Shown: piece by piece, positions 1,890-54,040 of the stretch | How the letters are laid out: the number at the start of each line of letters is the position of its first letter | Numbering within the stretch: position 1 is the stretch's first letter | From: Acidimicrobiia bacterium | Lineage (GTDB): Bacteria; Actinomycetota; Acidimicrobiia; Spongiisociales; ZC4RG35 | Assembly: GCA_036555105.1 (NCBI GenBank) | Contig: DATBMA010000062.1 | Location: forward strand, 7,063 to 71,062 | Length of the DNA stretch: 64,000 bases | Direction of reading: 5' to 3' | The notes under the pieces: model-generated | What the model saw: the letters and a program-made list of their open reading frames with translations, nothing else | What the model was told of the DNA's origin: nothing | Databases searched by the model: none | Program-made: the position numbers and the translations under genes

Positions 1890-2195
1890 CGCTACCACCT
1901 TGCGATGGCAGTGTCCCCGTTTCCGGGGAACGCTTCGGCGTCTCGACGGCCCGAAGGCCCCCGGCCGGCTTTCGCACACCCTTGCGGATGTCCGAAGCGT
2001 GCAGTCCGCCTTGCGGCTTCCTGCCGCCTCAGGAGTCACCCCCTGAAGCGGTCGGCACGATAACCGTCCGCTACAGGATGGCAAGCCCGGAGCCAACCCA
2101 GTTTTCGCGAGGTGGTGTGGGCGTTCCCTTCAGGGTGGGAAAGGTTTTCGTCACCCCGAATCACTCCCCGCGAGGCCCACAAAAGTGAAACCCCG

Positions 2196-2244
2196 AGAGA
2201 GCCAGGGCCGAAGCCCCCACCCTCTCGGGGTTCCTTGCCTCCGG
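2196..2244. repeat. Copy 2 of the intergenic hairpin repeat.
   Basis: The sequence AAACCCCGAGAGAGCCAGGGCCGAAGCCCCCACCCTCTCGGGGTTCC is a direct repeat of the element at 1842-1889. Confidence 0.6.
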
Positions 2245-2430
2245 CTTCCCGGGCCCGAAGACCCGTTCCCCCGGTGACCCCGTTGAGGCCTTTCGGCCCC
2301 TCCGAGACCGGTCTGGAGTCACCCCCACACCGGCCTGCGCAACATACGAGGGCATCCTCCGCCTCGTCAAGCCGGGAGCCTCTCCAGTTTTCGCGAGGGC
2401 CTGCCTGGTTTTCGCGAAACAACGCTCCCG

Positions 2431-2464
2431 GTTTCTGTCACAGGCCGGCCATATAGTCGGAGGG
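2431..2464 (+). promoter_or_regulatory. Candidate DNA-damage (RecA-NDp / PafBC-type) promoter with a leaderless start.
   Basis: The sequence is tTTCTGTCAcaGGC-N6-TATAGT, i.e. TGTCA at 2436-2440 and TATAGT at 2451-2456. The GTG start of the downstream nuclease lies 8 nt after the -10. The same architecture is seen at 5511-5538. Confidence 0.4.
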
Positions 2465-3247
2465 GTGACGCTGGAGACTCTCTCGCCCAGCCGGGCGGCC
2501 GATTTCAAGGCCTGCCCAAGGCTTTTTCGCTTCCGGGCAATCGAGCACCTGCCCGAGCCGACCACGGTTCACCAGGCTCGTGGGACCACGGCCCACCTCG
2601 CTCTGCAGCGGCTTTTCGACGAGGCCCCGGCCGAGCGGACCCCGGACCGGCTCTTCGACCTCTTCCGCCAGGCATGGACCGAGTTGCGCTCGGACGAGGA
2701 GTTCGCGGGGCTCTTCCCTGACCTCGACGAGGAGCGCGCCTGGGGGGTGTCGAGCCTGGCGGTGCTGGCCAACTACTTCGGGTTGGAGGACCCGACCTCC
2801 TTCGATCCCCTCGACCGCGAGCTCGACCTCCTACAGGACTTCGACGGGGGCATCACCATCCGCGGCATCCTCGACCGGATCGATCGGAGGCCGGATGGGC
2901 GCCTGGTCATCACCGACTACAAGACCGGGAGCGCTCCCCCAGAGCCATACGCCCTGCCTGCGTTCTTCGCCTTGAAGATCTACGCCCTGTTGATCCGCCG
3001 ACATCTGGGAGAGACGCCGGCCGAGATCCGGCTGCTCTACTTGAACGGCCCCACCATGTACCGGATCCCGGTGGACGACGGTCAGCTCGACGCAATGGAG
3101 CGTCAGCTGCGGGCGCTGTGGAAGGCGATCGAGCGAGCCCTCGAGAAGGATCTCTTTCCGCCCCGGCCCTCGCGTCTCTGCGACTACTGCTCTTTCCGAG
3201 ACCGCTGCCCGGCATGGGTGGAGCTGGCGGCTGACCTGGCCGGCTGA
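2465..3247 (+). CDS. PD-(D/E)XK nuclease of the Cas4/RecB family carrying the cysteines of a 4Fe-4S cluster.
   Basis: It has a GTG start. It carries the RecB nuclease motif LVITDYKTGS, a C-terminal CDYCSFRDRCPAW (C-x2-C-x5-C) and an N-terminal Cys (FKACPRLF), which is the Cas4/AddB-type Fe-S arrangement. Confidence 0.8.
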   Translation: MTLETLSPSRAADFKACPRLFRFRAIEHLPEPTTVHQARGTTAHLALQRLFDEAPAERTPDRLFDLFRQAWTELRSDEEFAGLFPDLDEERAWGVSSLAVLANYFGLEDPTSFDPLDRELDLLQDFDGGITIRGILDRIDRRPDGRLVITDYKTGSAPPEPYALPAFFALKIYALLIRRHLGETPAEIRLLYLNGPTMYRIPVDDGQLDAMERQLRALWKAIERALEKDLFPPRPSRLCDYCSFRDRCPAWVELAADLAG

Positions 3248-3273
3248 CCTGGCCGGCTGACCTGGCCGGCTGA
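3228..3273. repeat. Tandem 13-bp repeat (CGGCTGACCTGGC, about 3.5 copies) spanning the stop codon of the nuclease gene.
   Basis: Read directly from the sequence. It lies in the 32-bp gap between the convergent genes 2465-3247 (+) and 3280-4551 (-). Each copy carries a TGA in a different frame. Confidence 0.85.
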
Positions 3274-3279
3274 GGTCCG

Positions 3280-4551
3280 CTAGGGGAATATCCCCCTCAC
3301 CAGCTTGGCCTCGGCCACCTTGCCTATCCCGCGCATCAGCGCGGCGGTGCGCATGTCGACGTCGCGGGCGATGCTCACCGAGAGGACGTCATCGAAGGCC
3401 CTGGTCATGATCTCCCGCAGCCTGGCCACGATCTCGTTCTCGGTCCAGAAGTACTTCTGCACGTCCTGGACCCACTCGAAGTAGGAAGCGGTCACCCCCC
3501 CGGCATTGGCGAGGATGTCGGGAACGATGAAGACGCCCTGCTTGCGGAGGATCTCGTCCGCCTCGAGCGTGGTCGGGTTGTTGGCGCCCTCGATCACGAT
3601 CCTCGCCTGCACCTCATGGGCATTTTCGACCGTGAGCACGTTCTGCACTGCGGCCGGCACCAGGATGTCGCATGGGAGCCCGAACACCGCACCCGGGGCG
3701 AGCTGGTCCGCATCGGGATAGCCCTCCAGGTATCGATTCTGGTCCACCCACTTGGCGACGTTCTCGAGCTCGAGCCCATCCGGGTTGTAGAGGGCGGAGC
3801 CGATGTCGGCCACGGCCACCACCTTGCAGCCGAGCTCGTTTGCCGCGATCGCCGCGTAGCGCCCGACGTTGCCGAACCCGTGCACGGCCACCGCGGCGTC
3901 CTTGTATGGGATGCCGACATGGGTGGTGGCCTGGGGGATAAGGCTCACCAGCCCGCGCCCGGTCGCCTCCCGCCTGGCGACGCTGCCGCCCAGTGCGGGC
4001 GGCTTGCCGGTGACCACTGCCGGGACCGAATGCCCGACATGCTGGCTGTAGGTGTCCATCAGCCAGGCCATCACCTGCTCGTTGGTCCCCAGGTCGGGAG
4101 CGGGGATGTCGACCTCGGGACCGATCACGTTGATGATCTCCATCGTGTAGCGGCGTGTGACCCGCTGCAGCTCGGCCCTCGAGAGCTCCATTGGGTTGAC
4201 CCGCACCCCGCCCTTGGCCCCCCCGAAGGGGAGCCCGACGATGGCGCACTTCCAGGTCATCAGCATTGCCAGCGCCGAAACCTCGCCCAGGTCGACATCC
4301 GGGGCGAAGCGGATCCCGCCCTTGGTCGGGCCCATCGTCTTGAGATGCTGAACGCGGTATCCGAAGAGGGTGTCGACCTTGTTGTAGCTGTCACGACGGA
4401 ATGGGAAGCTGACAACTGTGGCGCGCTGGGGGACGCGCAGGCGGTCGGCGACATTGGCGTCGAGCTCCATGAGGGCCGCCACCCGGTCGAACTGCCCCAC
4501 CGCCTCCCGGTACATCGGGGAGTCCCACTCTTTGTTGAGCTCTTCTGGCAT
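3280..4551 (-). CDS. gdh: Glutamate dehydrogenase (Glu/Leu/Phe/Val dehydrogenase family).
   Basis: It has the KGGIRF and GLPFGGAKGG motifs and is 423 aa long. The RBS GAAGGAG precedes the ATG at 4551. Confidence 0.9.
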   Translation of the reverse strand: MPEELNKEWDSPMYREAVGQFDRVAALMELDANVADRLRVPQRATVVSFPFRRDSYNKVDTLFGYRVQHLKTMGPTKGGIRFAPDVDLGEVSALAMLMTWKCAIVGLPFGGAKGGVRVNPMELSRAELQRVTRRYTMEIINVIGPEVDIPAPDLGTNEQVMAWLMDTYSQHVGHSVPAVVTGKPPALGGSVARREATGRGLVSLIPQATTHVGIPYKDAAVAVHGFGNVGRYAAIAANELGCKVVAVADIGSALYNPDGLELENVAKWVDQNRYLEGYPDADQLAPGAVFGLPCDILVPAAVQNVLTVENAHEVQARIVIEGANNPTTLEADEILRKQGVFIVPDILANAGGVTASYFEWVQDVQKYFWTENEIVARLREIMTRAFDDVLSVSIARDVDMRTAALMRGIGKVAEAKLVRGIFP

Positions 4552-4675
4552 GGCTCCTTCTCTGGTGGCGGGCGGATGTTACGTCTGGCCACTGAATCGG
4601 CGGGGTTGGCGGGTCCCTCAAGTATCGAAAAGCCATTGCCGATAGGCATGAGATGGGACGGAGGTCCGCGGCCTG

Positions 4676-5401
4676 ATGCGCCGTGCGCTCGTGCTCGTTG
4701 CAACTGTCGGTGGCTGGGTCCTGGCCATCAACCTCACGGTCTCCGCCGTCGCCCCTCCCGGCCCCGTCTACGAGGTGGAGGTGGCTACCACCTATGCCAA
4801 CGCCACCTTTCCCGAGATCACCGACCCCTCCCCCGATCGCCTGACCCCGGCAGCCGCCCTGCCCAGCATCACCTCCACGGCTCCCACCACCTCCACTACC
4901 GCCGCCCCCTCGACCACCACCGCCCCGACCACTACCACGGCCGCGCCGACCACCACGACCAGGCCAAAGCCCAAGCCGACCACCACCAGCACCACCAACA
5001 CGACCGCGGCGCCGACCACCACCGCGGCACCGGCAGGCAGCTTCTCCTCTTCGGCGGAGACCGACTTCGTCAACCGCATCAACGGCCTCCGAGCCGACAA
5101 CGGCCTGCCGGCGCTCAAGGTCGACGGCGACCTCAAGGCTTACGCCCGCAATTGGGCGGAACACATGGCGACGGTGGACAAGTTCCAGCATTCCGACATC
5201 GGCGACCTCCTAAACCCGTGGACCATCGTCGGGGAGAACATCGGGAAGGGCGGCTCGGTCGCCTCGTTGTTCCAGGCGCTGGTCAACAGCCCCGGCCACT
5301 ACGCCAACATGGTCGAGGACTCCTTCACCCATGTGGGAGTGGGAGTGTGGATCGACGACGACGGCACGATGTGGACCACCCACGTCTTCGCCGGCAAGTA
5401 G
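4676..5401 (+). CDS. Secreted CAP/SCP (PR-1-like) domain protein with an N-terminal TM/signal segment and a Thr/Pro-rich linker.
   Basis: It has the CAP signature GHYANMV...HVGVGVW. The N-terminus is hydrophobic. A TTTAAPTTTT low-complexity linker lies at about 4880-5035. Confidence 0.75.
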   Translation: MRRALVLVATVGGWVLAINLTVSAVAPPGPVYEVEVATTYANATFPEITDPSPDRLTPAAALPSITSTAPTTSTTAAPSTTTAPTTTTAAPTTTTRPKPKPTTTSTTNTTAAPTTTAAPAGSFSSSAETDFVNRINGLRADNGLPALKVDGDLKAYARNWAEHMATVDKFQHSDIGDLLNPWTIVGENIGKGGSVASLFQALVNSPGHYANMVEDSFTHVGVGVWIDDDGTMWTTHVFAGK

Positions 5402-5512
5402 CACAGTCTCACGGTCTCACGGTCTCACGGTCTCACGGTCTCACGGTCTCACGGTCTCACGGTCAGACTTCGAGACCTCGAGACCTCGAGACTGTCCGAC
5501 TTCGAGACCTCA
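5402..5512. repeat. Tandem octamer array (ACGGTCTC, about 7 copies) followed by an array of its inverse (CGAGACCT, about 4 copies), forming a long imperfect hairpin.
   Basis: Read directly: cacagtctc(acggtctc)x6acggtcagacttcgagacctcgagacctcgagactgtccgacttcgagacctc. GGTCTC and GAGACC units can pair, leaving 2-nt bulges between them. Confidence 0.85.
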
Positions 5513-5544
5513 TTTCTGTCCCTGCCCTCTGATACGTTGGCCGG
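5511..5544 (+). promoter_or_regulatory. Second copy of the candidate DNA-damage promoter, with a leaderless start for adnA.
   Basis: The sequence is tTTCTGTCCctGCC-N6-TACGTT, and the GTG start at 5545 lies 7 nt after the -10. It shares the layout TTCTGTC[A/C]-N11-TANNNT with 2431-2456. Confidence 0.35.
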
Positions 5545-8508
5545 GTGAGTGAGGAGCGGAGGATCGGGCCGGCCGAATGGCCCGAGGCGATAGAGGCGAC
5601 CGACGGCCCCCAGCTGGTGGTGGCCGGCCCCGGCACGGGCAAGACCGAGTTTCTGGTGCAACGGGCGGTGCACTTGATCCGGTCCGGCCGGGCAAGGTCT
5701 GACCAGATCCTGGTGCTGTCCTTCTCCCGGCGGGCGGCGACCGACCTACGCAACCGGATCGGGGCTGGGGTCGAGGGCTCGTGGACTGGGATCGCCGCGT
5801 CGACCTTCCACTCCTTCGCCTTCAGGCTGCTCGAGGCCCATTCGGAAAGGGCGCTGGGGTGGCCTTCGATGCCGTCGCTCCTGACTGGGCCTGAACAGGT
5901 CGCTCTGGTTCATCATCTCCTTCGCGAGGAGGACAGTGAGGACTGGCCATCTGACCTCGGCGCCTTTCTGGGAACCCAGACGCTGGCGGTGGAGCTGAGC
6001 GACCTGATCATGAGGACTCGCGAGCTGTTGCTCGATGGGACAGCGTTGGCGGCGATGGGAGTGCCTGAATGGCAGGCCATCCCCTCCTTCCTCCAAGCGT
6101 ACGACCGCAGGCTCGAGGCCGAGGGCAGGATCGACTACGGGACCTTGCTGCTGAGAGCCGCGCAATGCCTCGAGTCGGGGGTGGCCGCCGAGGCCGAAGA
6201 GCAGTACCCCTACGTGTTGGTCGACGAGTTCCAGGACACCACCGTCGTCCAGGCCCGGATGCTCGACCTCCTCACCGCCAGTCGCCGCAACCTCACAGTG
6301 GCAGCCGATCCCTATCAGTCCATCTACGGCTTCCGGGGGGCCGCGATCGACAACGTGATCTCGTTCGTGGAACGCTTCGGTGGAGGCCGTGAGCCTCGTC
6401 GGTGGGTGCTGGCGGAAAGCTTTCGGGTCCCGGCCCCGATCCTGGAGTCGGCCCTGCGGGTGGTGGCGGGTGGGGCCCTTCCTGGCGGGGCCGGCGTGGT
6501 ACTCCCGGCCGGGCATGGCGGCCAGGTTGGGGCATATGTGTTCGACCAGGCGACTGCCGAAGCGGAGTGGATCGCAACCGAGGTCGAGCGGATGCACCTC
6601 GAGGAGGCCGTGCCCTATTCGGCGATGGCGGTCCTGGTCCGCTCCAAGCGCCACCTGCTGCCAGAGCTGTCGAGGGCGCTTGACCGGCGCAACATCCCCC
6701 ATGACCCTCCCGACTCGAGGCTGGCCGACCACCCGGCGGTGCGGATGGTCCTCGACCTCGTCACCGCCGCCACCGACACTGATCCGGAGGAAGTCGACCG
6801 GGCGGTGCGCAGGCTCCTGCTGGGACCGCTCTTCGCCCTCTCGCTCAGCCAGGAGCGCGAGATCTGGCGCATGCGGCGCCGCACCGACAGAGACTGGCCG
6901 CAGCTGCTGAGAGAGACGCTGCCGGAGGGCTCCGCTCTGGCCGGCTTGATCGAAGACCCGGCCTGGGCCGGCCAGGAGGCTGCCGCCGACGGGTTCTGGA
7001 AGGTCTGGTCGCGACTGCCTCAGTTCGGTCGCGTGGTGCACGAGCCCGGGTTCGAGGAGCATCGGGCAGCCCTGGCCTCGCTCGCCCAGTCGCTCACCCA
7101 GCAGAGCGAGCGCGATCCCCGAGTGACGCTGAGGGACTATGGCCGAATGGCGGCCGAGGAGGACTTCGAGGCCACCCCGCTCCTCTCGTTTCGCGCACAC
7201 CAGCCCCACTTGACCCTCACCACGCTCCACCAGGCCAAGGGTCTCGAGTTCGACACCGTCTTCATCGCCGACGCCATCGAAGGCCTGTTCCCCGACAACC
7301 GCCGCACCCAGGCTCTGATCAGGCTCGAACTCCTCACGAGACGCGATGACGACCCCGAGGGCAGGCGGGCGCGCCTCCAGGAGGAGATGCGCCTGGCCTA
7401 CACAGCCATGACCCGGGCAAGGCGCCGGGTGGTCTGGTCGGCGACCTCCGCCGGTCTGGACGAAACCGAAAACCGCCCCTCACGCTTCCTGTTGGCGGCA
7501 GCCGGTGTTTCCCAAGTGGATGAGCTCGTCAGTCCCCCGGCCGAGGCGACCAAGCCGCTGACGGCGGCAGCCGCACAAGCATTCCTACGCCGCACGCTGA
7601 CGGACGCCGCCGCACCGGCTCCTGCTCGAGTAGCCGCGCTGGCAGCCCTGTCCCACCCGCCGGCGGGAGACTGGTGGGAGCCACGACGTTTCCCCGGCGT
7701 AGCCGAGCGCGGCCCCGATCACGGGGTCATCTCGTTGCCCATCGTCCTTTCCCCGAGCCAGGCCGACTCCTACGAGTCCTGCCCGCGCCGCTACGTGCTG
7801 GAGAAGCGCCTGGGCCTGCAAGGAGGCGACAGCCCGTATGCCCAATTCGGCCGGCTGATCCACACAGTCCTCGAGCGAGCCGAGAGTGCTGCCAGGGTGA
7901 GCGGGCTCCCCCACGCCCAGTTGGAGACCGCCCTTGCCAAGCTGGCCGAGGTGTGGGCGAAGGAGGCCGACTTCGGAAGCCCCGTCCTCACCGAGGCATG
8001 GGAGATGCGCGGCGCCAAGTTGCTCACCATCCTCTATGAGGCGTGGCCGCCTCCGGAGGGCACCGAGTTGCTCGCCGTCGAGAAGAGCCTCGAGTGGACG
8101 CTTGACGAGATCAAGTGGTGGGGGCGGGCCGATCGGATCGAGCGGCTCCCCACCGGTGGGCTGCGGGTCATCGACTACAAAACGACCACCAGTCCCCCCA
8201 CCACCGGGGAGGCAGCCGAGTCCCTCCAGCTCGGCTTCTATCTCTGCGCAGTCGCAGACGATCCCGAGATGGCGGCCTGGGGCGAGCCGGAGGCAGCCCA
8301 GATGTGGTTCCCGCTCGGCGGCAAGAGGCCGGCGGTGCGCGACTTCGAGGTCGCCAAGCTCGAGGGGGTGGGCCATCGCCTCCTCGAGGTCGAACGGGGG
8401 ATCAAGGCAGAGGAGTGGCCGGCCCGGCCCTCCAAGGATTGCGGCCGCTGCTCGGTCAAGCTCGTCTGCCCGGCATGGCCCGAGGGAAGAGAGGCCTACC
8501 TCCCATGA
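5545..8508 (+). CDS. adnA: AdnA-like subunit of an ATP-dependent helicase-nuclease: an N-terminal UvrD/PcrA-type SF1 helicase and a C-terminal RecB-type nuclease with Fe-S cysteines.
   Basis: It has the Walker A motif GPGTGKTEF, UvrD-family helicase motifs (DEFQDT), the C-terminal nuclease motif RVIDYKTT and a Cys cluster KDCGRCSVKLVCP. Its stop TGA overlaps the start of the next gene (ATGA at 8505-8508). Confidence 0.75.
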   Translation: MSEERRIGPAEWPEAIEATDGPQLVVAGPGTGKTEFLVQRAVHLIRSGRARSDQILVLSFSRRAATDLRNRIGAGVEGSWTGIAASTFHSFAFRLLEAHSERALGWPSMPSLLTGPEQVALVHHLLREEDSEDWPSDLGAFLGTQTLAVELSDLIMRTRELLLDGTALAAMGVPEWQAIPSFLQAYDRRLEAEGRIDYGTLLLRAAQCLESGVAAEAEEQYPYVLVDEFQDTTVVQARMLDLLTASRRNLTVAADPYQSIYGFRGAAIDNVISFVERFGGGREPRRWVLAESFRVPAPILESALRVVAGGALPGGAGVVLPAGHGGQVGAYVFDQATAEAEWIATEVERMHLEEAVPYSAMAVLVRSKRHLLPELSRALDRRNIPHDPPDSRLADHPAVRMVLDLVTAATDTDPEEVDRAVRRLLLGPLFALSLSQEREIWRMRRRTDRDWPQLLRETLPEGSALAGLIEDPAWAGQEAAADGFWKVWSRLPQFGRVVHEPGFEEHRAALASLAQSLTQQSERDPRVTLRDYGRMAAEEDFEATPLLSFRAHQPHLTLTTLHQAKGLEFDTVFIADAIEGLFPDNRRTQALIRLELLTRRDDDPEGRRARLQEEMRLAYTAMTRARRRVVWSATSAGLDETENRPSRFLLAAAGVSQVDELVSPPAEATKPLTAAAAQAFLRRTLTDAAAPAPARVAALAALSHPPAGDWWEPRRFPGVAERGPDHGVISLPIVLSPSQADSYESCPRRYVLEKRLGLQGGDSPYAQFGRLIHTVLERAESAARVSGLPHAQLETALAKLAEVWAKEADFGSPVLTEAWEMRGAKLLTILYEAWPPPEGTELLAVEKSLEWTLDEIKWWGRADRIERLPTGGLRVIDYKTTTSPPTTGEAAESLQLGFYLCAVADDPEMAAWGEPEAAQMWFPLGGKRPAVRDFEVAKLEGVGHRLLEVERGIKAEEWPARPSKDCGRCSVKLVCPAWPEGREAYLP

Positions 8509-11500
8509 CCTTCGAACCGACGCCCGAGCAGCAGGCGGTCATCGACGCCCCCACCGGTCCGCTGCGGGTGTCGGCCGGCGCGGGAACCGGCAAGACCACC
8601 ACCATCGCCCTGCGGGTGGCATCAATGGTGACCAATGGCGGAGTCGCCCCCGAGGAGGTCCTCGGGGTCACGTTCACCAACAAGGCGGCCGGCGAGCTGT
8701 CCGACCGGATCCGATTCCATCTCGCCTCCCGTGTCGAGGCCGGACAGGAGGTCGAGGTCCGCACCTATCACGGCTTCGCCGCCCAGATCGTCCGGGAGTT
8801 CGGCGTGCTGATCGGGATCGAACGGGGCACCAAGGTCATCAGCCCCACCTACAGCCGCCAGCTGCTGCTGGAAGTGATGCGGCGCCATCGCCTGCCCGGC
8901 GTCGACCAGACCTACTTCCAGGTCGTGGGGAGGATGCTCCGACTGTCGTCCAGCCTCGGCGACCACCTCCTGACCGCCAGAGAGGTGGCGGCCCCTGAGG
9001 GAGCCGGCGGGGCCTGGGTGGAGCGGGCGGGGCTGTTGGAAGGCCTTCGCCACTACGAGTTGGAGAAGAGGCGGCTGGGGGTGGCCGACTACGGCGATCT
9101 GATCACCGGCGCCCACCGGGTCTTGATCGAGCGGCCGGAGACGGCCGCCCGCATCTCCGCCCGGTACCGGGTCGTCCTGCTCGACGAGTATCAGGACACC
9201 AACCCGGCCCAGCGAAAGATGCTCCAGGCGCTCTTTCCATCCGGGCACTCGGTGACCGCGGTCGGGGACACGGACCAGACCATCTATGAATGGAGGGGAG
9301 CCTCCCTCGACAACTTCAGGAGCTTCCCCCTTCACTTTCCGTCGGCCTCAGGCCATCCGGCGCCGACCCTTCCCCTCACCTTCAACCGGCGGTCCGGTAC
9401 CAGGATCATCGAAGTGGCGAACGCCATCCGCGACCAGATCGGGTCGGACTCGGCCCCGCTGCAGCCCAAGCCCGACGCCCCCGAAGGCGGGGTGGAGACC
9501 GCTTGGTGGCGAACCTCGGTCGACGAGGCCGAATGGATAGCCACCCGGCTGGAGGAGTTGCACGAATCGATGCGCTGGCGCGACGCGGCGGTCCTGTTCC
9601 GCAAGAACAAGGACATCCCGTTGATCCTGGAGACTCTTGGCCGCCACGAGATCCCGGTCGAGGTCGCCAATCTGGGTGGGCTGCTCTCGGTTCCCGAGGT
9701 GACCGACCTCCACTGCTGGCTGCGGATCCTGGCGGATCCCGAGGACGGTCCCGCCTTGGCCAGGGTGATGCTTGGGTCCGGCTACCGGCTGGGCCTGGCC
9801 GACCTGGCCGCACTGGCCAGGTGGGTTCGAAGCCTGCGGCCCAGGCGACCCGAGCGTGATGACGAGGCGGGGCCCTCGCCGATCGAAGCCGTCGACCGAC
9901 TCGAAGACGTGGCCGGCCTCCGACCGGAGGCGGCACCGGTCCTCCAGTCGTTCCGCGCCACCTACAGAGCGCTGTTGGTGGCCGCCCAGGGATCATCCCT
10001 GGTGGAGTTGTGCCGGACGGTGCTCGAGGCCACCCGCGCCTGGTCCCACGTCGATGCCTTGCCCAGCGCATCGAGGCTTAGTGCCCGGCTCAACCTCTAC
10101 AGATTCCTCGATCTGGCAGAGGACTGGTCGCCGTTGGAGGGGCGCCCCTCGTTGGATGCATTCCTGCTCTTCCTCGCCGACTCGGCGGACGCCGAGGCCG
10201 ACGAGCTCGATCCGGCGCGGCTGTCTGGCGCCGATGCAGTCACCCTGGTGACGGTCCACCGAGCCAAGGGCTTGGAGTGGGAAGCCGTCTTCCTGCCCGC
10301 CGTCCACAAGGACAACTTCCCTTCCCGGCAGATCAACTCGGACAATCCGCGCAAGAACGCCCAGTCCCTGCCCTATGAGCTGCGCCTCGACGCCGGCGAC
10401 CTGCCTGGCCCGGAGATGACCGACGCCAAGTTCGAGGCCGCGGTCCGCGAGCGTCACCTCCAGCAGGAGTGGCGAGTGGCGTACGTCGCCGCCACCAGGG
10501 CCAAGAGCCTCCTGGCGGTGAGCGGCGCCTTTTGGGGGGGCAGCCCCGAGCCGAACACCAACCCGCGGGAGCCCAGCCCGCTGTTCGAGCTCGTCGACAG
10601 CCATCCGATGTCAAGGCAAGTGAACTTCGAACCCGATCCGGGCGAGCAGCCCGAGCTGCTCGGACTCGAGCCGACGGCCCCCTCCCCTGATCCCACCTTC
10701 GCCAGCGGTTGGGAGGAGGCCATGCGACGCGCCATCGCCGACCCCGCCTACCCGGCCCAGCTGGCTGACGAGCTGAAGGTGTCCGACGCGTTCGAGCGCA
10801 GATTGGCCGACGAGGAGGCGACCCTGTTCGACCTACCCCAACTCCCGGGCGAGGAGGCCTCCGCTACTCCCATCGTCTCGGTGACCGGGCTGGTCACCTA
10901 TGCATCCTGTCCCCTCCGGTACAGGTGGTCGGAGGTCGACCGACTGCCCCAGCGACGCTCACCGGCGGCCAGGCGCGGGTCCGAGGTGCACCGGCGCATC
11001 GAGCTCCACAACCTGGGAGTGGTCCCGCTCGACGATCTCGCCTTCGACACATATGACGCCACTTCCGACGTCACCACCGCCGCAGGACAGGACGAACGAC
11101 CTCACGACCCCATGGTCTCTTTCCTCGGCTCGCGCTTCTCGACCGACAGGCCCCTGCTGACAGAGGCCCCGTTCGAGTTGCGACTCAATTCGGGCACCAA
11201 GGTGCGCGGGCGGATCGATGCCGTGTACGAGAGCTCGGAGGGAATCTGGGAGGTGGTCGACTTCAAGACCGGCCCGCCGAGCGCCGACCCGGCCACCCGC
11301 GTGCAGCTGCAGGCATACGCGGTGGCGGTCGAGGACGTCCCGTTTCGCAGCAATCCGCCCGATGATGTGACCGTCACCTTCGCCCACCTAGGCAAGGAGG
11401 CAATCGAGCTGAGCGAGCACGTCGATGAAGCCTGGCTGCAGGAGGCGCGAGAACATCTGGATCAGCTGACGGCCGGGATCGAGGCGCAGGCCTACCCGGC

Positions 11501-11573
11501 CACCCCGGGTCCCGGCTGCGCGAGCTGTGACTTCTTCGGCTTCTGCGCCGCCGGCCAGGCCTATCTCAGCTGA
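8505..11573 (+). CDS. adnB: AdnB-like subunit of an ATP-dependent helicase-nuclease (UvrD-like helicase fused to a RecB nuclease with Fe-S cysteines).
   Basis: The start was set at ATG 8505 (reading MTFEPTPEQQAVIDAP), in frame with the track ORF 8115-11573, whose upstream extension is Arg/Gly-rich. It has the Walker A motif GAGTGKTTT and DEYQDT, the C-terminal nuclease motif EVVDFKTG and the cysteines PGCASCDFFGFC. Confidence 0.75.
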   Translation: MTFEPTPEQQAVIDAPTGPLRVSAGAGTGKTTTIALRVASMVTNGGVAPEEVLGVTFTNKAAGELSDRIRFHLASRVEAGQEVEVRTYHGFAAQIVREFGVLIGIERGTKVISPTYSRQLLLEVMRRHRLPGVDQTYFQVVGRMLRLSSSLGDHLLTAREVAAPEGAGGAWVERAGLLEGLRHYELEKRRLGVADYGDLITGAHRVLIERPETAARISARYRVVLLDEYQDTNPAQRKMLQALFPSGHSVTAVGDTDQTIYEWRGASLDNFRSFPLHFPSASGHPAPTLPLTFNRRSGTRIIEVANAIRDQIGSDSAPLQPKPDAPEGGVETAWWRTSVDEAEWIATRLEELHESMRWRDAAVLFRKNKDIPLILETLGRHEIPVEVANLGGLLSVPEVTDLHCWLRILADPEDGPALARVMLGSGYRLGLADLAALARWVRSLRPRRPERDDEAGPSPIEAVDRLEDVAGLRPEAAPVLQSFRATYRALLVAAQGSSLVELCRTVLEATRAWSHVDALPSASRLSARLNLYRFLDLAEDWSPLEGRPSLDAFLLFLADSADAEADELDPARLSGADAVTLVTVHRAKGLEWEAVFLPAVHKDNFPSRQINSDNPRKNAQSLPYELRLDAGDLPGPEMTDAKFEAAVRERHLQQEWRVAYVAATRAKSLLAVSGAFWGGSPEPNTNPREPSPLFELVDSHPMSRQVNFEPDPGEQPELLGLEPTAPSPDPTFASGWEEAMRRAIADPAYPAQLADELKVSDAFERRLADEEATLFDLPQLPGEEASATPIVSVTGLVTYASCPLRYRWSEVDRLPQRRSPAARRGSEVHRRIELHNLGVVPLDDLAFDTYDATSDVTTAAGQDERPHDPMVSFLGSRFSTDRPLLTEAPFELRLNSGTKVRGRIDAVYESSEGIWEVVDFKTGPPSADPATRVQLQAYAVAVEDVPFRSNPPDDVTVTFAHLGKEAIELSEHVDEAWLQEAREHLDQLTAGIEAQAYPATPGPGCASCDFFGFCAAGQAYLS

Positions 11574-33014: not shown

Positions 33015-35648
<2,634 letters not shown>

Positions 35649-35662
<14 letters not shown>

Positions 35663-52031: not shown

Positions 52032-53891
52032 TCAGAGGTCTGCAGGCCCGCCGTACATGTCGTCGATCGACCCCTGGTACTTCTCCAGCACCACCCGGCG
52101 CTTGAGCTTGAGCGATGGGGTGATCTCACCGGACTCGGGCGTCCAGACGTCGGACACGATGACGAACTTCTTCACCTGCTCGACCCTGGACACCTTCTCG
52201 TTGGCCGCGTCCAGCGCCTTCTGCACCTCGACCCGCACCTCGGCCAACCCGCTGAAGGAGGTCATGTCCGTGTATTCGAGGCTGTTGGCCTTGGCCCATC
52301 CAGGCGCCTCATCGGGGTCGAGGGAAATGACCATCGACAGGAACTGCCTGCCATCACCGACCATGCAGGCGTGGGCCACGAGAGGATGGTTCTTGATCGC
52401 CGTCTCCAGGGTCGCCGGGGCGATGTTCTTGCCGGCGGCGGTGATGATGATCTCCTTCTTGCGGCCGACGATGAACAGGAAGCCGTCCTCGTCGAACCGG
52501 CCGAGGTCACCCGAGTGGATCCATCCGTCCTTGGTGAAGGTGGCGGCCGTCTCCTCTGGCATCTTGTAATAGCCGGCGGTGACCACTCCCCCTCTCATCA
52601 TGATCTCGCCGTCCTCAGCCAGCTCCACCTCGACCCCGGGAATGGCCTTCCCGATCGAGCCGATCCGATCGGCGCCGGGAAGGTTGGTCGTGGCAGGACC
52701 GGTGGTCTCGCTCATGCCGTACAGCTCGTAGAGAGGCACCCCGACTGCCCGGAAGAAGCGAATGAGGTCGTCGTTGATCGGAGCAGCGGCGGTGATCGCG
52801 ATGAGCAATTGGTCCAGGCCGAGGCCGTGCCTCACCTTGGAGAACACGAGACGTTCGAACACGGCGTGCTTGACCCTGCGACCGCCGGGCGAGCGCCGCC
52901 CGGCTTCCTGATCCGCCACCACCTCCAAGCCGTTTTTGAGGGCGGCCTTGATGATTCCTTCCCGTTTGGGATCCTCTGCGAAGCGCGCAAGGAGCCGTGA
53001 GTGGAACTTCTCCCACACTCGCGGCACTGCCACGAACACGGTGGGGCGGGCCTTGGTTATGTAGTCGAGCACCCGACCGAGGTCGGGGCAGTAGAACACC
53101 TCGCCCGCCTTGTAGAGGCCCAGGTAGTGGGTGGCGAGCCGCTCGGCGATGTGGGCGAGCGGGAGATAGCTCACCAGCCTGGGGTTGTCCGGGATCTCGA
53201 TCGCTCGCACGAGGCATTCGGTCGTCCACAGCACGTTGCGATGGGTGATCATCACGCCCTTGGGGGTGCCAGTGGTGCCGCTCGTGTAGATCAGGGTGGC
53301 CAGTCCGTCGGGTCTGGCGGCGGCGGCTGCCCTCGTCACCAGGTCATGGTCTTCGGCCAGCGCCTTGCGTCCACGGGCGACCAGGTCCTCCCAAGAGAGC
53401 ACCCAGTCGGTGGTGTCGTAGTTGTCGGCTCCCTCCATCAGCACGATGTAACGGAGCTCCGGCAGCTCCGACTTGATCGCCTCCCACCGTTTCATGAACG
53501 TGAGATCCTCGAGGATGGCGACCTTGGCAGAGCAGTTCGAGGCGATGTACTGGATCTGGCCCTGGGCGAGGGTCGAGTAGATGGTCACCCCGGTGCCGGC
53601 GGCATGCACCGCCCCGAGGTCGGCGATGACATGCTCGGGCCGGTTGCCGGCCATGATGGCGACAAAGTCGCCAGCTCCCACGCCGAGCCCGATCAACCCG
53701 GCCGCGACCTCGTGGACCGCGGTCCGGTAGCCGGACCAGGTGAGATCCTTCCAATCCTCCCCTTCCTTCCACCAGATGGCGGACTTGTCGGGGAAGTCAC
53801 GGGCATTGCGGTCGATCACGTCGACCAGGGTCTTGCCCTCGACGGTTGCGTCGATCTCGGACCGCTCTTGCAGGACGGTGCTGCGGGTCAT
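52032..53891 (-). CDS. Long-chain fatty-acid--CoA ligase (AMP-forming).
   Basis: The start was set at ATG 53891 (reading MTRSTVLQERSEI) after the RBS GGAGGAGG. It has the AMP-binding motif YTSGTTGTPKGV. Confidence 0.85.
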   Translation of the reverse strand: MTRSTVLQERSEIDATVEGKTLVDVIDRNARDFPDKSAIWWKEGEDWKDLTWSGYRTAVHEVAAGLIGLGVGAGDFVAIMAGNRPEHVIADLGAVHAAGTGVTIYSTLAQGQIQYIASNCSAKVAILEDLTFMKRWEAIKSELPELRYIVLMEGADNYDTTDWVLSWEDLVARGRKALAEDHDLVTRAAAAARPDGLATLIYTSGTTGTPKGVMITHRNVLWTTECLVRAIEIPDNPRLVSYLPLAHIAERLATHYLGLYKAGEVFYCPDLGRVLDYITKARPTVFVAVPRVWEKFHSRLLARFAEDPKREGIIKAALKNGLEVVADQEAGRRSPGGRRVKHAVFERLVFSKVRHGLGLDQLLIAITAAAPINDDLIRFFRAVGVPLYELYGMSETTGPATTNLPGADRIGSIGKAIPGVEVELAEDGEIMMRGGVVTAGYYKMPEETAATFTKDGWIHSGDLGRFDEDGFLFIVGRKKEIIITAAGKNIAPATLETAIKNHPLVAHACMVGDGRQFLSMVISLDPDEAPGWAKANSLEYTDMTSFSGLAEVRVEVQKALDAANEKVSRVEQVKKFVIVSDVWTPESGEITPSLKLKRRVVLEKYQGSIDDMYGGPADL

Positions 53892-54040
53892 TCCTCCTCC
53901 TGTCCAGGCACTTGGCTGTCCAAGCGATTGGCTGTCAAAGCGGTTGGCATTTGAGCCCTTGGCGCCCGGGCAGCATACCGGCCGGGGTCGGGAACGTCCC
54001 GGCCGGTCCCATGGCCCAGCCGCGCTGCTTTCATGAGCCC

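Follow-up and report, generated by a model that had tools for sequence, protein, structure and literature searches.

Why a run of tandem octamers, followed at once by its own inverse, should sit between a gene for a secreted CAP-domain protein and the genes for an AdnAB-like helicase-nuclease is the question raised by this locus. On a rough gene map the genome is compact, with intergenic gaps mostly below 60 nt and convergent genes that overlap, so the 143-nt gap that separates adnA from the CAP gene, 110 nt of which is repeat, stands out. The features concerned lie in a window of 64 kb, which is the whole stretch of DNA that was analysed, and are as follows.

4676-5401, + strand: gene for a secreted CAP-domain (YkwD-like) protein of 241 aa (Pfam PF00188, E = 1.4e-16)
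5402-5465, + strand: left arm of the array, with CACAGTCT, 6 x CACGGTCT and CACGGTCA, making 8 head-to-tail octamers
5466-5511, + strand: right arm of the array, GACTTC-GAGACCTC-GAGACCTC-GAGAC-TGTCC-GACTTC-GAGACCTC, 46 nt of inverse units
5545-8508, + strand: adnA-like helicase-nuclease gene (Pfam UvrD-helicase and PDDEXK_1)
8505-11573, + strand: adnB-like helicase-nuclease gene (Pfam UvrD-helicase and PD-(D/E)XK nuclease), with a 4-nt overlap with the adnA stop

The array as a whole occupies 110 nt (5402-5511, + strand), with the TAG stop of the CAP gene (5399-5401) directly abutting it on one side and the adnA promoter on the other, which is the position given in the preliminary description; the right arm is followed by a single A and then TTTCTGTCCC. 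That description also had tandem octamers with an inverse copy able to fold back on each other, and the sequence, the repeat finder TRF and the predicted RNA fold all agree with it. It is apparent that the word perfect holds for six of the eight left units and not for the first and last, which carry one change each, and that the exact inverse unit CGAGACCT is present three times in the right arm, rather than the four or so copies first given. On the left part TRF finds 7.9 copies of period 8 (5402-5464, 98% matches, score 119) and on the right part 5.5 copies of the same period (5465-5508, 78% matches). The 16-mer CACGGTCTCACGGTCT, allowing up to 3 mismatches, has 7 overlapping matches at the array and 1 elsewhere in the 64 kb, with shuffled sequences giving 1.0 +/- 1.0 and none of 100 shuffles reaching the observed 8. 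By both measures this is a simple-sequence repeat, in which copies of a short unit stand head to tail far above chance. As inverted repeats the arms are 50 nt each and 70-75% complementary. The 2-nt linker between units is AC in one arm and TC in the other, which suggests that each arm was homogenised on its own. The G+C content of the array is 56% against 68% for the genome, and no stop codon interrupts any frame of the sense strand in either arm.

The same 16-mer search (up to 3 mismatches) found no further array of the CACGGTCT type in the 64-kb window. Other repeats of the window were considered as members of one system with the array and rejected, as none is related to it: CCCTGT x36 at 34350-34564 encodes (Gln-Gly)n, a 13-mer x3.9 at 3224-3273 is not variable, and a 16-mer repeat at 53900 lies within a promoter region. 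GGTCTC is the recognition site of BsaI/Eco31I, and the idea that it matters here as a restriction site was dropped, since its 75 occurrences in the window show neither avoidance nor enrichment against the 72 expected. Rfam gave no matches, either for the whole window at the gathering threshold or for 1900-5600 at E <= 1.

The CAP protein has an N-terminal hydrophobic segment and a Thr/Pro-rich linker and is identical to NCBI HEY7704391.1, from the metagenome-assembled genome TPA Acidimicrobiia bacterium, whose AdnA (HEY7704392.1) falls in the 90%-identity cluster of the window AdnA, both proteins being encoded on one 103,706-nt contig. An adnB-like gene is also called in the contig L061 and in the relatives, and upstream lie a stand-alone PD-(D/E)XK nuclease gene and, on the opposite strand, a gene for glutamate dehydrogenase (Pfam). 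Outside the 90%-identity cluster the closest AdnA is 89% identical and the next ones about 56%, so the lineage is poorly sampled; a scan of a genome collection with AdnA returned only a 34%-identical Acidobacteriota locus and no close reference genome was found.

The guess that the array is a variable-number tandem repeat (VNTR), to be judged by comparing copy number across strains, is supported. Contigs from five further JGI samples were used, in which the CAP protein is identical or in the same 90%-identity cluster and the flanking DNA matches the window at 99.0-99.8% identity with gaps counted. With the array measured between the flanks CGCCGGCAAGTAG ... ATTTCTGTCCCTGCC, and copy numbers read from short-read assemblies rather than from individual reads, the 5 complete contigs give 4 length alleles (78, 110, 118 and 126 nt), in which all steps are multiples of 8 nt.

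Window and L062: 110 nt, the same allele in two independent assemblies
L001: 78 nt, 3 left units and 1 right GAGACCTC unit fewer than the window
L002: 118 nt, variant first unit CACAGTCT duplicated
L004: 126 nt, 2 extra left units compared with the window
L003: incomplete, the contig ending within the array after at least 8 left units

The left arm is the main variable tract, with 5 to 10 units in the other contigs, and the right arm varies too. Copy number thus differs by whole units between unchanged flanks, as seen in the assemblies, with the variation concentrated in the perfect run of units, which is what slippage predicts. It begins at least 57 nt upstream of the adnA start codon, and all alleles retain the predicted hairpin described below (-35.7 to -60.2 kcal/mol), its basal helix, its tail and an identical promoter-proximal 45 nt. 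In a relative with an 89%-identical AdnA the gap between the CAP gene and adnA is 183 nt, equal to 143 + 5x8. The boundary of four JGI contigs falls within the array or at its margin (L003, two of sample 3300056388 and a 1179-nt contig of sample 3300043331), and the Logan contigs L061 and L069 also break there, which is expected for technical reasons. The variation was taken as real, because a single read is longer than the periodic tract and the 110-nt allele was obtained in two independent assemblies. The array is a slippage-prone VNTR, and this part of the interpretation is far more secure than the part concerning termination.

Downstream of the array the promoter of adnA can be recognised, and a second of the same type is found further upstream.

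5514-5538, + strand: conserved promoter TTCTGTCCC-N7-TGATACGTT, with TGTC at 5517-5520, 12 nt, then TACGTT at 5533-5538
2433-2467, + strand: second promoter of the same type, TTTCTGTCAC-N10-TATAGT-N7-GTG, with a 1-nt offset, before the PD-(D/E)XK nuclease gene
2465-3247, + strand: PD-(D/E)XK nuclease gene (Pfam PF12705)

The array ends one base before the T-rich start of the adnA promoter and 33 nt before the adnA GTG. This GTG lies about 6-7 nt 3' of the -10 hexamer and has no Shine-Dalgarno sequence, which makes a leaderless adnA mRNA probable; translation cannot begin further upstream because of an in-frame TGA at 5530-5532, and the same start is used in the gene calls of L002 and L004. The pattern TGTC-N12-TANNNT-N6-RTG has a single match in the window, the 5517-5538 site, with 0.04 expected. 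What had been picked out as a TTCTGTCC promoter element is indeed one to judge from its conservation, as the motif is kept in two relatives with about 55% identical AdnA, as TTCTGTCCCACCCCGGTGATACCTT-N6-GTG in L068 and as TTTTGTCCCACCCCCCTGATACCTT-N6-ATG in L065. The RecA-NDp consensus of Gamulin et al. 2004 is reported to read tTGTCRgtg-N8-TAnnnT. The adnA promoter matches this DNA-damage-inducible RecA-NDp/PafBC type in having TGTC, 12 nt and TANNNT at an equal spacing before a DNA-repair gene, conserved in L068 and L065, but it differs in that CCCTG follows TGTC where the consensus has RGTG. RecA-NDp is the target of PafBC and extends beyond the mycobacteria (PMC6789036, PMC8223512), and in mycobacteria adnA is PafBC-dependent (PMC8682763).

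The second element of the locus that may bear on function is the structure that a transcript of the array is predicted to take, together with the sequence that follows it.

5413-5509, + strand: predicted interrupted RNA hairpin of 35 bp in six helices, with the apical loop at 5458-5464
5510-5519, + strand: T-rich tail TCATTTCTGT, directly 3' of the basal helix and overlapping the 5' part of the promoter motif

In the RNA fold the helices are of 4-8 bp each with 2x2 internal loops between them, and the fold of the array (-55.7 kcal/mol, z = -4.99) was equalled by none of 200 shuffles, with the minimum free energy (MFE) structure making up 46% of the ensemble. An exceptional raw folding energy was considered and rejected, as 120-nt windows of this 68% G+C genome average -47 +/- 8 kcal/mol and the array is not extreme among them; what sets the array apart is that, for a sequence of 56% G+C, it forms one clean hairpin, and its regularity is unusual. 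The strong fold is predicted for RNA rather than for DNA. The cruciform that had been proposed is not supported, the arms being imperfectly complementary and the DNA fold weak (-23.5 kcal/mol, z = -2.3, MFE frequency 2%, centroid almost unpaired). The stability of the two strands was also compared as a test of selection at the RNA level, and the sense strand of the window array has no advantage: the antisense RNA folds slightly better (-58.4 against -52.9 kcal/mol), so the G-U asymmetry shows no sign of selection on the sense transcript.

The hairpin starts 12 nt 3' of the CAP stop codon and is stable, and like an intrinsic terminator it is a G+C-containing hairpin close behind a stop codon with a T-rich stretch after it. 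The tail UCAUUUCU has 5 U in 8; the claim that there is no U-tract was thus too strong, being correct only in that the tract is weak, and the tail TCATTTCTGT may act as a weak U-tract. U-tract-poor intrinsic-terminator hairpins have been reported for Actinobacteria. The array differs from intrinsic terminators in its variable copy number, in the weakness of its U-tract and in its stem, which has about 35 bp of repeated units in six helices with 2x2 internal loops where a compact stem has about 5-14 bp and a small loop. When 4000-6500 was scanned for terminators and promoters by a simple method, the array gave no hit, and with gaps mostly so short and convergent genes overlapping, obvious terminators are not the norm of this genome. 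The weak U-tract and an interrupted 35-bp stem far from that of a typical terminator count against a terminator reading, as does the fact that one relative, L068, has no hairpin in the same slot, so that the element is dispensable.

The two relatives L068 and L065 are informative about the history of the gap. In both the order of CAP gene and adnA is conserved, with the CAP gene directly before the promoter motif, so the neighbourhood is ancestral; the L068 CAP protein is full-length and 47% identical to that of the window, and the L065 protein is 61% identical across the CAP domain. The L068 spacer, from CAP stop to promoter motif, is 30 nt of unstructured sequence (z = +0.85) without the array, which is therefore neither ancient nor indispensable and, on the sequences compared, is lineage-specific. 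The L065 spacer contains a hairpin whose 12-bp basal stem has no mismatch and is built from a duplicated GGAGCGC; CACCUUUUUUGUCCC comes next, giving a canonical terminator-like hairpin with U6. The sequence in the position of the T-rich tail is CACCTTTTTTGTCCC, directly after this stem, with the U-tract merging into the same TTTTGTCCC promoter motif. The repeat hairpin of the window, followed by UCAUUUCUGUCCC, lies in the same slot, and this is the main support for reading the array as an element in the position of a terminator.

The reading that is favoured, with moderate confidence, is that of a lineage-specific octanucleotide VNTR that has expanded on both arms of a terminator-position hairpin upstream of the leaderless adnAB promoter. 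The ancestral seed may have been a short terminator stem of GGTCTC/GAGACC, in each arm of which replication slippage, aided by the hairpin itself, would have multiplied the 8-nt units, with intrastrand template switching perhaps contributing to the expansion of the arms. The CAP transcript would then fold into the hairpin which, with the weak tail UCAUUUCU, would end or stabilise the CAP mRNA and limit read-through from the CAP gene into adnAB. The earlier suggestion of a structural insulator, in the sense of a terminator, is plausible on this model. The basal helix, the tail and the 45 nt nearest the promoter are preserved in every allele, so the changes in copy number would be mostly neutral, and copy number is probably near-neutral, although it may tune read-through into adnAB.

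How ordinary such an array is can be judged from other organisms. An exact scan of a metagenome collection for (CACGGTCT)3 gave 55 contigs, amounting to about 40 independent loci of 41-69% G+C with unrelated flanks, where most arrays also contain versions of the unit that differ by one base. Between samples a given locus often differs by whole units (L007/L016, L031/L033, L034/L052 and L012/L057). An inverted partner array is present at at least 4 independent loci (L023, L054, L058 and L027/L060), and the resulting hairpins are very long (up to -269 kcal/mol). At the three loci where neighbouring genes could be identified, the hairpin comes shortly after the 3' end of a gene that has a Pfam match.

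L023: hairpin preceded by an 830-aa gene and followed by an ECF sigma factor gene
L054: hairpin between converging 7TM-HD and ComF-like genes
L058: hairpin 17 nt 3' of a gene for asparagine synthase

In L054, L058 and L027 the better-folding strand has extra G-U pairs, and in L054 and L058 this is the sense strand of the neighbouring gene, an asymmetry that hints at structure at the RNA level. A further contig, L045, was considered as an element bounded by inverted arrays and rejected, being a whole-contig palindrome and an assembly artefact. A miniature inverted-repeat mobile element was also considered; the array is present as a single copy in the window and the metagenome loci have unrelated flanks and internal sequences, which does not fit such an element. 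In viral contigs the unit has 0 matches, against 3, 3 and 1 for three control octamers of the same composition. With controls no rarer than it, the unit has nothing special about it, and octamer arrays are a generic product. The preliminary description had named as a refutation that such arrays turn out to be common simple repeats with no positional conservation, and for the unit itself, as for any role specific to its sequence, this is largely the case.

These observations bear most directly on the possibility that the array is a purely neutral simple-sequence expansion, slippage debris without function that built up in one of the rare non-coding gaps, with the hairpin a by-product of its origin. 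That the unit is not special agrees with this, as do the absence of the array from L068 with the same gene order, the unbalanced arms of L004 (10 left units and about 6 right) and a sense strand without any folding advantage. The observations that do not fit so readily are that a 110-nt insert survives in all strains seen despite a compact genome, and apparently also in the relative with the 89%-identical AdnA, that the basal helix and tail are kept in all alleles, that L065 has its terminator-like hairpin at the same position, and that inverted partner arrays are found behind three genes of unrelated organisms, a frequency far above that of chance juxtaposition. A purely neutral origin is considered rather unlikely, though less so than the other alternatives.

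A further explanation is that the array is a contingency locus, phase-variable or rheostat-like, in which copy number sets the read-through into adnAB or alters the promoter, giving heritable but reversible variation in the capacity for double-strand-break repair. Copy number is indeed hypervariable among strains, and the array lies directly upstream of a promoter that matches the DNA-damage-inducible RecA-NDp type. The tract of a classical phase-variation switch would lie inside an open reading frame or between core promoter elements, and the array does neither: the CAP gene TAG precedes it, adnA cannot start further upstream because of the in-frame TGA at 5530, the array does not lie between the -35-equivalent and the -10, and its promoter-proximal 45 nt are invariant, all of which weakens the contingency reading. 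All alleles also have a strong hairpin, and there is no known upstream operator. A coding or frameshift switch was considered separately and rejected, with the CAP stop ahead of the tract and adnA unable to start upstream of 5533. There are precedents for expression being tuned by tracts that lie upstream of promoters or in untranslated regions, in the TAAA tract upstream of the promoter of nadA in Neisseria meningitidis (PMC2791445) and in the upstream tract of 7-bp repeats of hmw1A in Haemophilus influenzae (PMC12721329, PMC8262952). With these the array shares a short-unit tandem tract in a non-coding gap by a promoter and whole-unit polymorphism among near-identical strains. It differs in having an 8-nt unit that is paired with an inverted tract and folds back on itself, in lying upstream of all recognisable promoter elements with its promoter-proximal part invariant, and in its host, an uncultured free-living actinobacterium where the hosts of nadA and hmw1A are host-adapted pathogens. 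A contingency locus is regarded as improbable. The same low standing is given to the bolder proposal that two-armed microsatellite hairpins are a recurrent and unrecognised class, formed from terminator stems by slippage and intrastrand template switching in many bacterial phyla as terminators of heritable but quickly changeable strength, and acting here as a population-level rheostat for read-through from a constitutive CAP gene into a damage-inducible adnAB operon; no account that treats two-armed, co-expanded repeat hairpins as a class was found.

The preliminary description had also raised a binding array for a repeat-recognising protein, and here two known systems of short intergenic repeats are relevant. 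The cyanobacterial STRR heptamer arrays are intergenic runs of 7-8-nt units that are abundant and variable, as the present array is intergenic, built of units of this size and variable, and they form multicopy families with characteristic units; to our knowledge they are not described as fold-back pairs. Closer in layout are the class 1 and class 2 sites of Geobacter metallireducens, proposed 'global regulator sites' in intergenic DNA where 3-4 tandem octamers have a matching set, variably spaced from them, on the other strand (Aklujkar et al. 2009, PMC2700814), which number 21-24 pairs per genome, have a fixed small unit number and have been proposed as protein-binding sites and insertion sequence (IS) targets (PMC2700814). 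The regular 8-nt units on both strands, inverted with respect to each other, reproduce this arrangement, and the class 2 unit TCTCCGTS loosely resembles TCTCACGG. The present array differs in being single in the 64 kb, longer and variable in number, and in having arms that abut to form one hairpin; it has no further copy in the 64-kb window and does not share the Geobacter consensus. A site for a DNA- or RNA-binding protein, like iterons or the Geobacter sites, is thus very improbable given that there is one site in 64 kb, that GGTCTC occurs at chance frequency, that copy number is not constant, that the spacer of L068 lacks the array, that control octamers are no rarer in viral contigs and that no candidate binding protein was identified.

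Hardly credible at all is an assembly artefact, in which de Bruijn graph loops would produce the length differences and contig breaks, for whilst six contigs are indeed interrupted within the array or at its margin, two of them (L061 and L069) where repeats longer than the assembler word size would force breaks, the perfectly periodic tract of 35-75 nt is shorter than the reads and than the largest k normally used in such assemblies, the window and L062 share an identical 110-nt allele as independent assemblies, and a duplicated variant unit and the loss of a right-arm unit are not simple collapses.

The array is thus a fairly ordinary slippage-prone repeat whose two-armed pairing recurs at several unrelated metagenome loci, and if it is neutral it is one more bacterial microsatellite. 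The tract provides a ready strain marker for this Acidimicrobiia population and explains the assembly breaks between the CAP gene and adnA in this lineage. If the hairpin is an active terminator with a strength that depends on copy number, it would be a case of operon insulation tuned by mutation in an actinobacterium that is free-living and uncultured, and it would suggest a simple way for terminator stems to grow. The presence of RecA-NDp-type promoters before both adnAB and the PD-(D/E)XK nuclease gene suggests, from the motifs, that PafBC-type regulation of the response to DNA damage reaches the Acidimicrobiia.

Octamer-type arrays are also carried by metagenome contigs whose flanks are unrelated to those of the window, and one of these, L054, holds a two-armed hairpin:

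L054, about 1966-2268: octamer hairpin of roughly 300 nt, consisting of little else than octamer units

One arm has about 20 GTGAGACC/GTGGGACG units and the other about 13 TACGGTCT/CACGGTCT units; the hairpin has a folding energy of -243 to -269 kcal/mol and is flanked by converging 7TM-HD and ComF-like genes on a contig of 69% G+C. The strand that folds better, via 18 G-U pairs, is the sense strand for the ComF-like gene. A further contig, L045 (Ga0137411_1377880), was considered as an element bounded by inverted arrays and rejected as a palindromic assembly or read artefact; it is 95.5% identical to its own reverse complement, with the full 4.1 kb aligned.

The octamer array is not the only repeat within the window:

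34350-34564: CCCTGT, about 36 copies, inside the minus-strand gene 33977-35662
4862-5032: Thr/Pro-rich coding repeat in the linker of the CAP gene
3224-3273: 13-mer CTGGCCGGCTGAC, 3.9 copies, spanning the stop of the PD-(D/E)XK nuclease gene
53892-53960: 16-nt unit, about 2.5 copies, upstream of a minus-strand gene starting near 53891

The CCCTGT repeat was rejected as a non-coding array because it lies within a gene, where it codes for an extended low-complexity tract of the form (Gln-Gly)n. The CAP linker repeat differs in length between strains, with proteins of 241, 242, 243 and 245 aa among the cluster members, and is a second length polymorphism near the octamer array, in-frame and in the same gene neighbourhood. 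The 13-mer repeat occupies the 32-nt gap between the nuclease gene and the converging glutamate dehydrogenase gene, and each of its units contains TGA, therefore providing stops in all three frames; two contigs near-identical to the window, L001 and L062, do not differ in how many copies they carry. Read on the minus strand, the 16-nt units (TTGACAGCCAA / TTGGACAGCCAA / CTGGACAGGAGG) resemble -35 boxes, and are possibly stacked promoters or operator repeats.

The divergent intergenic region 1978-2464, at 487 nt, is very long given the compactness of the genome, and CCAGTTTTCGCGAGG occurs in it three times (at about 2099, 2384 and 2407). Two features are found here:

2189-2232: hairpin with 20-nt arms, inside the intergenic region
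2433-2467, plus strand: second RecA-NDp/PafBC-type promoter match, TTTCTGTCAC-N10-TATAGT-N7-GTG

On the minus strand the fold at 2181-2300 reaches -78 kcal/mol, among the strongest local folds of the window, and the region may represent an unknown RNA; it gave no Rfam match, either with the whole window at gathering threshold or with 1900-5600 at E <= 1. The promoter match precedes the stand-alone PD-(D/E)XK nuclease gene (2465-3247), whose start is near-leaderless as read from the window sequence.

This nuclease gene adjoins the CAP-adnAB genes in relatives, with the order PD-(D/E)XK nuclease, CAP, adnA, adnB conserved in the contigs L065 and L068, and the minus-strand glutamate dehydrogenase gene (3280-4551) appears to be an insertion into that otherwise conserved order. 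A small ORF lies immediately 5' of adnA in only some Acidimicrobiia relatives and is absent from the window and L068:

L063, 2346-2477: small ORF, roughly 40 aa
L065, about 2381-2500: small ORF, roughly 40 aa

The two products have a DGPA and a CPxC motif in common, and in these relatives the conserved promoter would drive the small ORF that lies before adnA.
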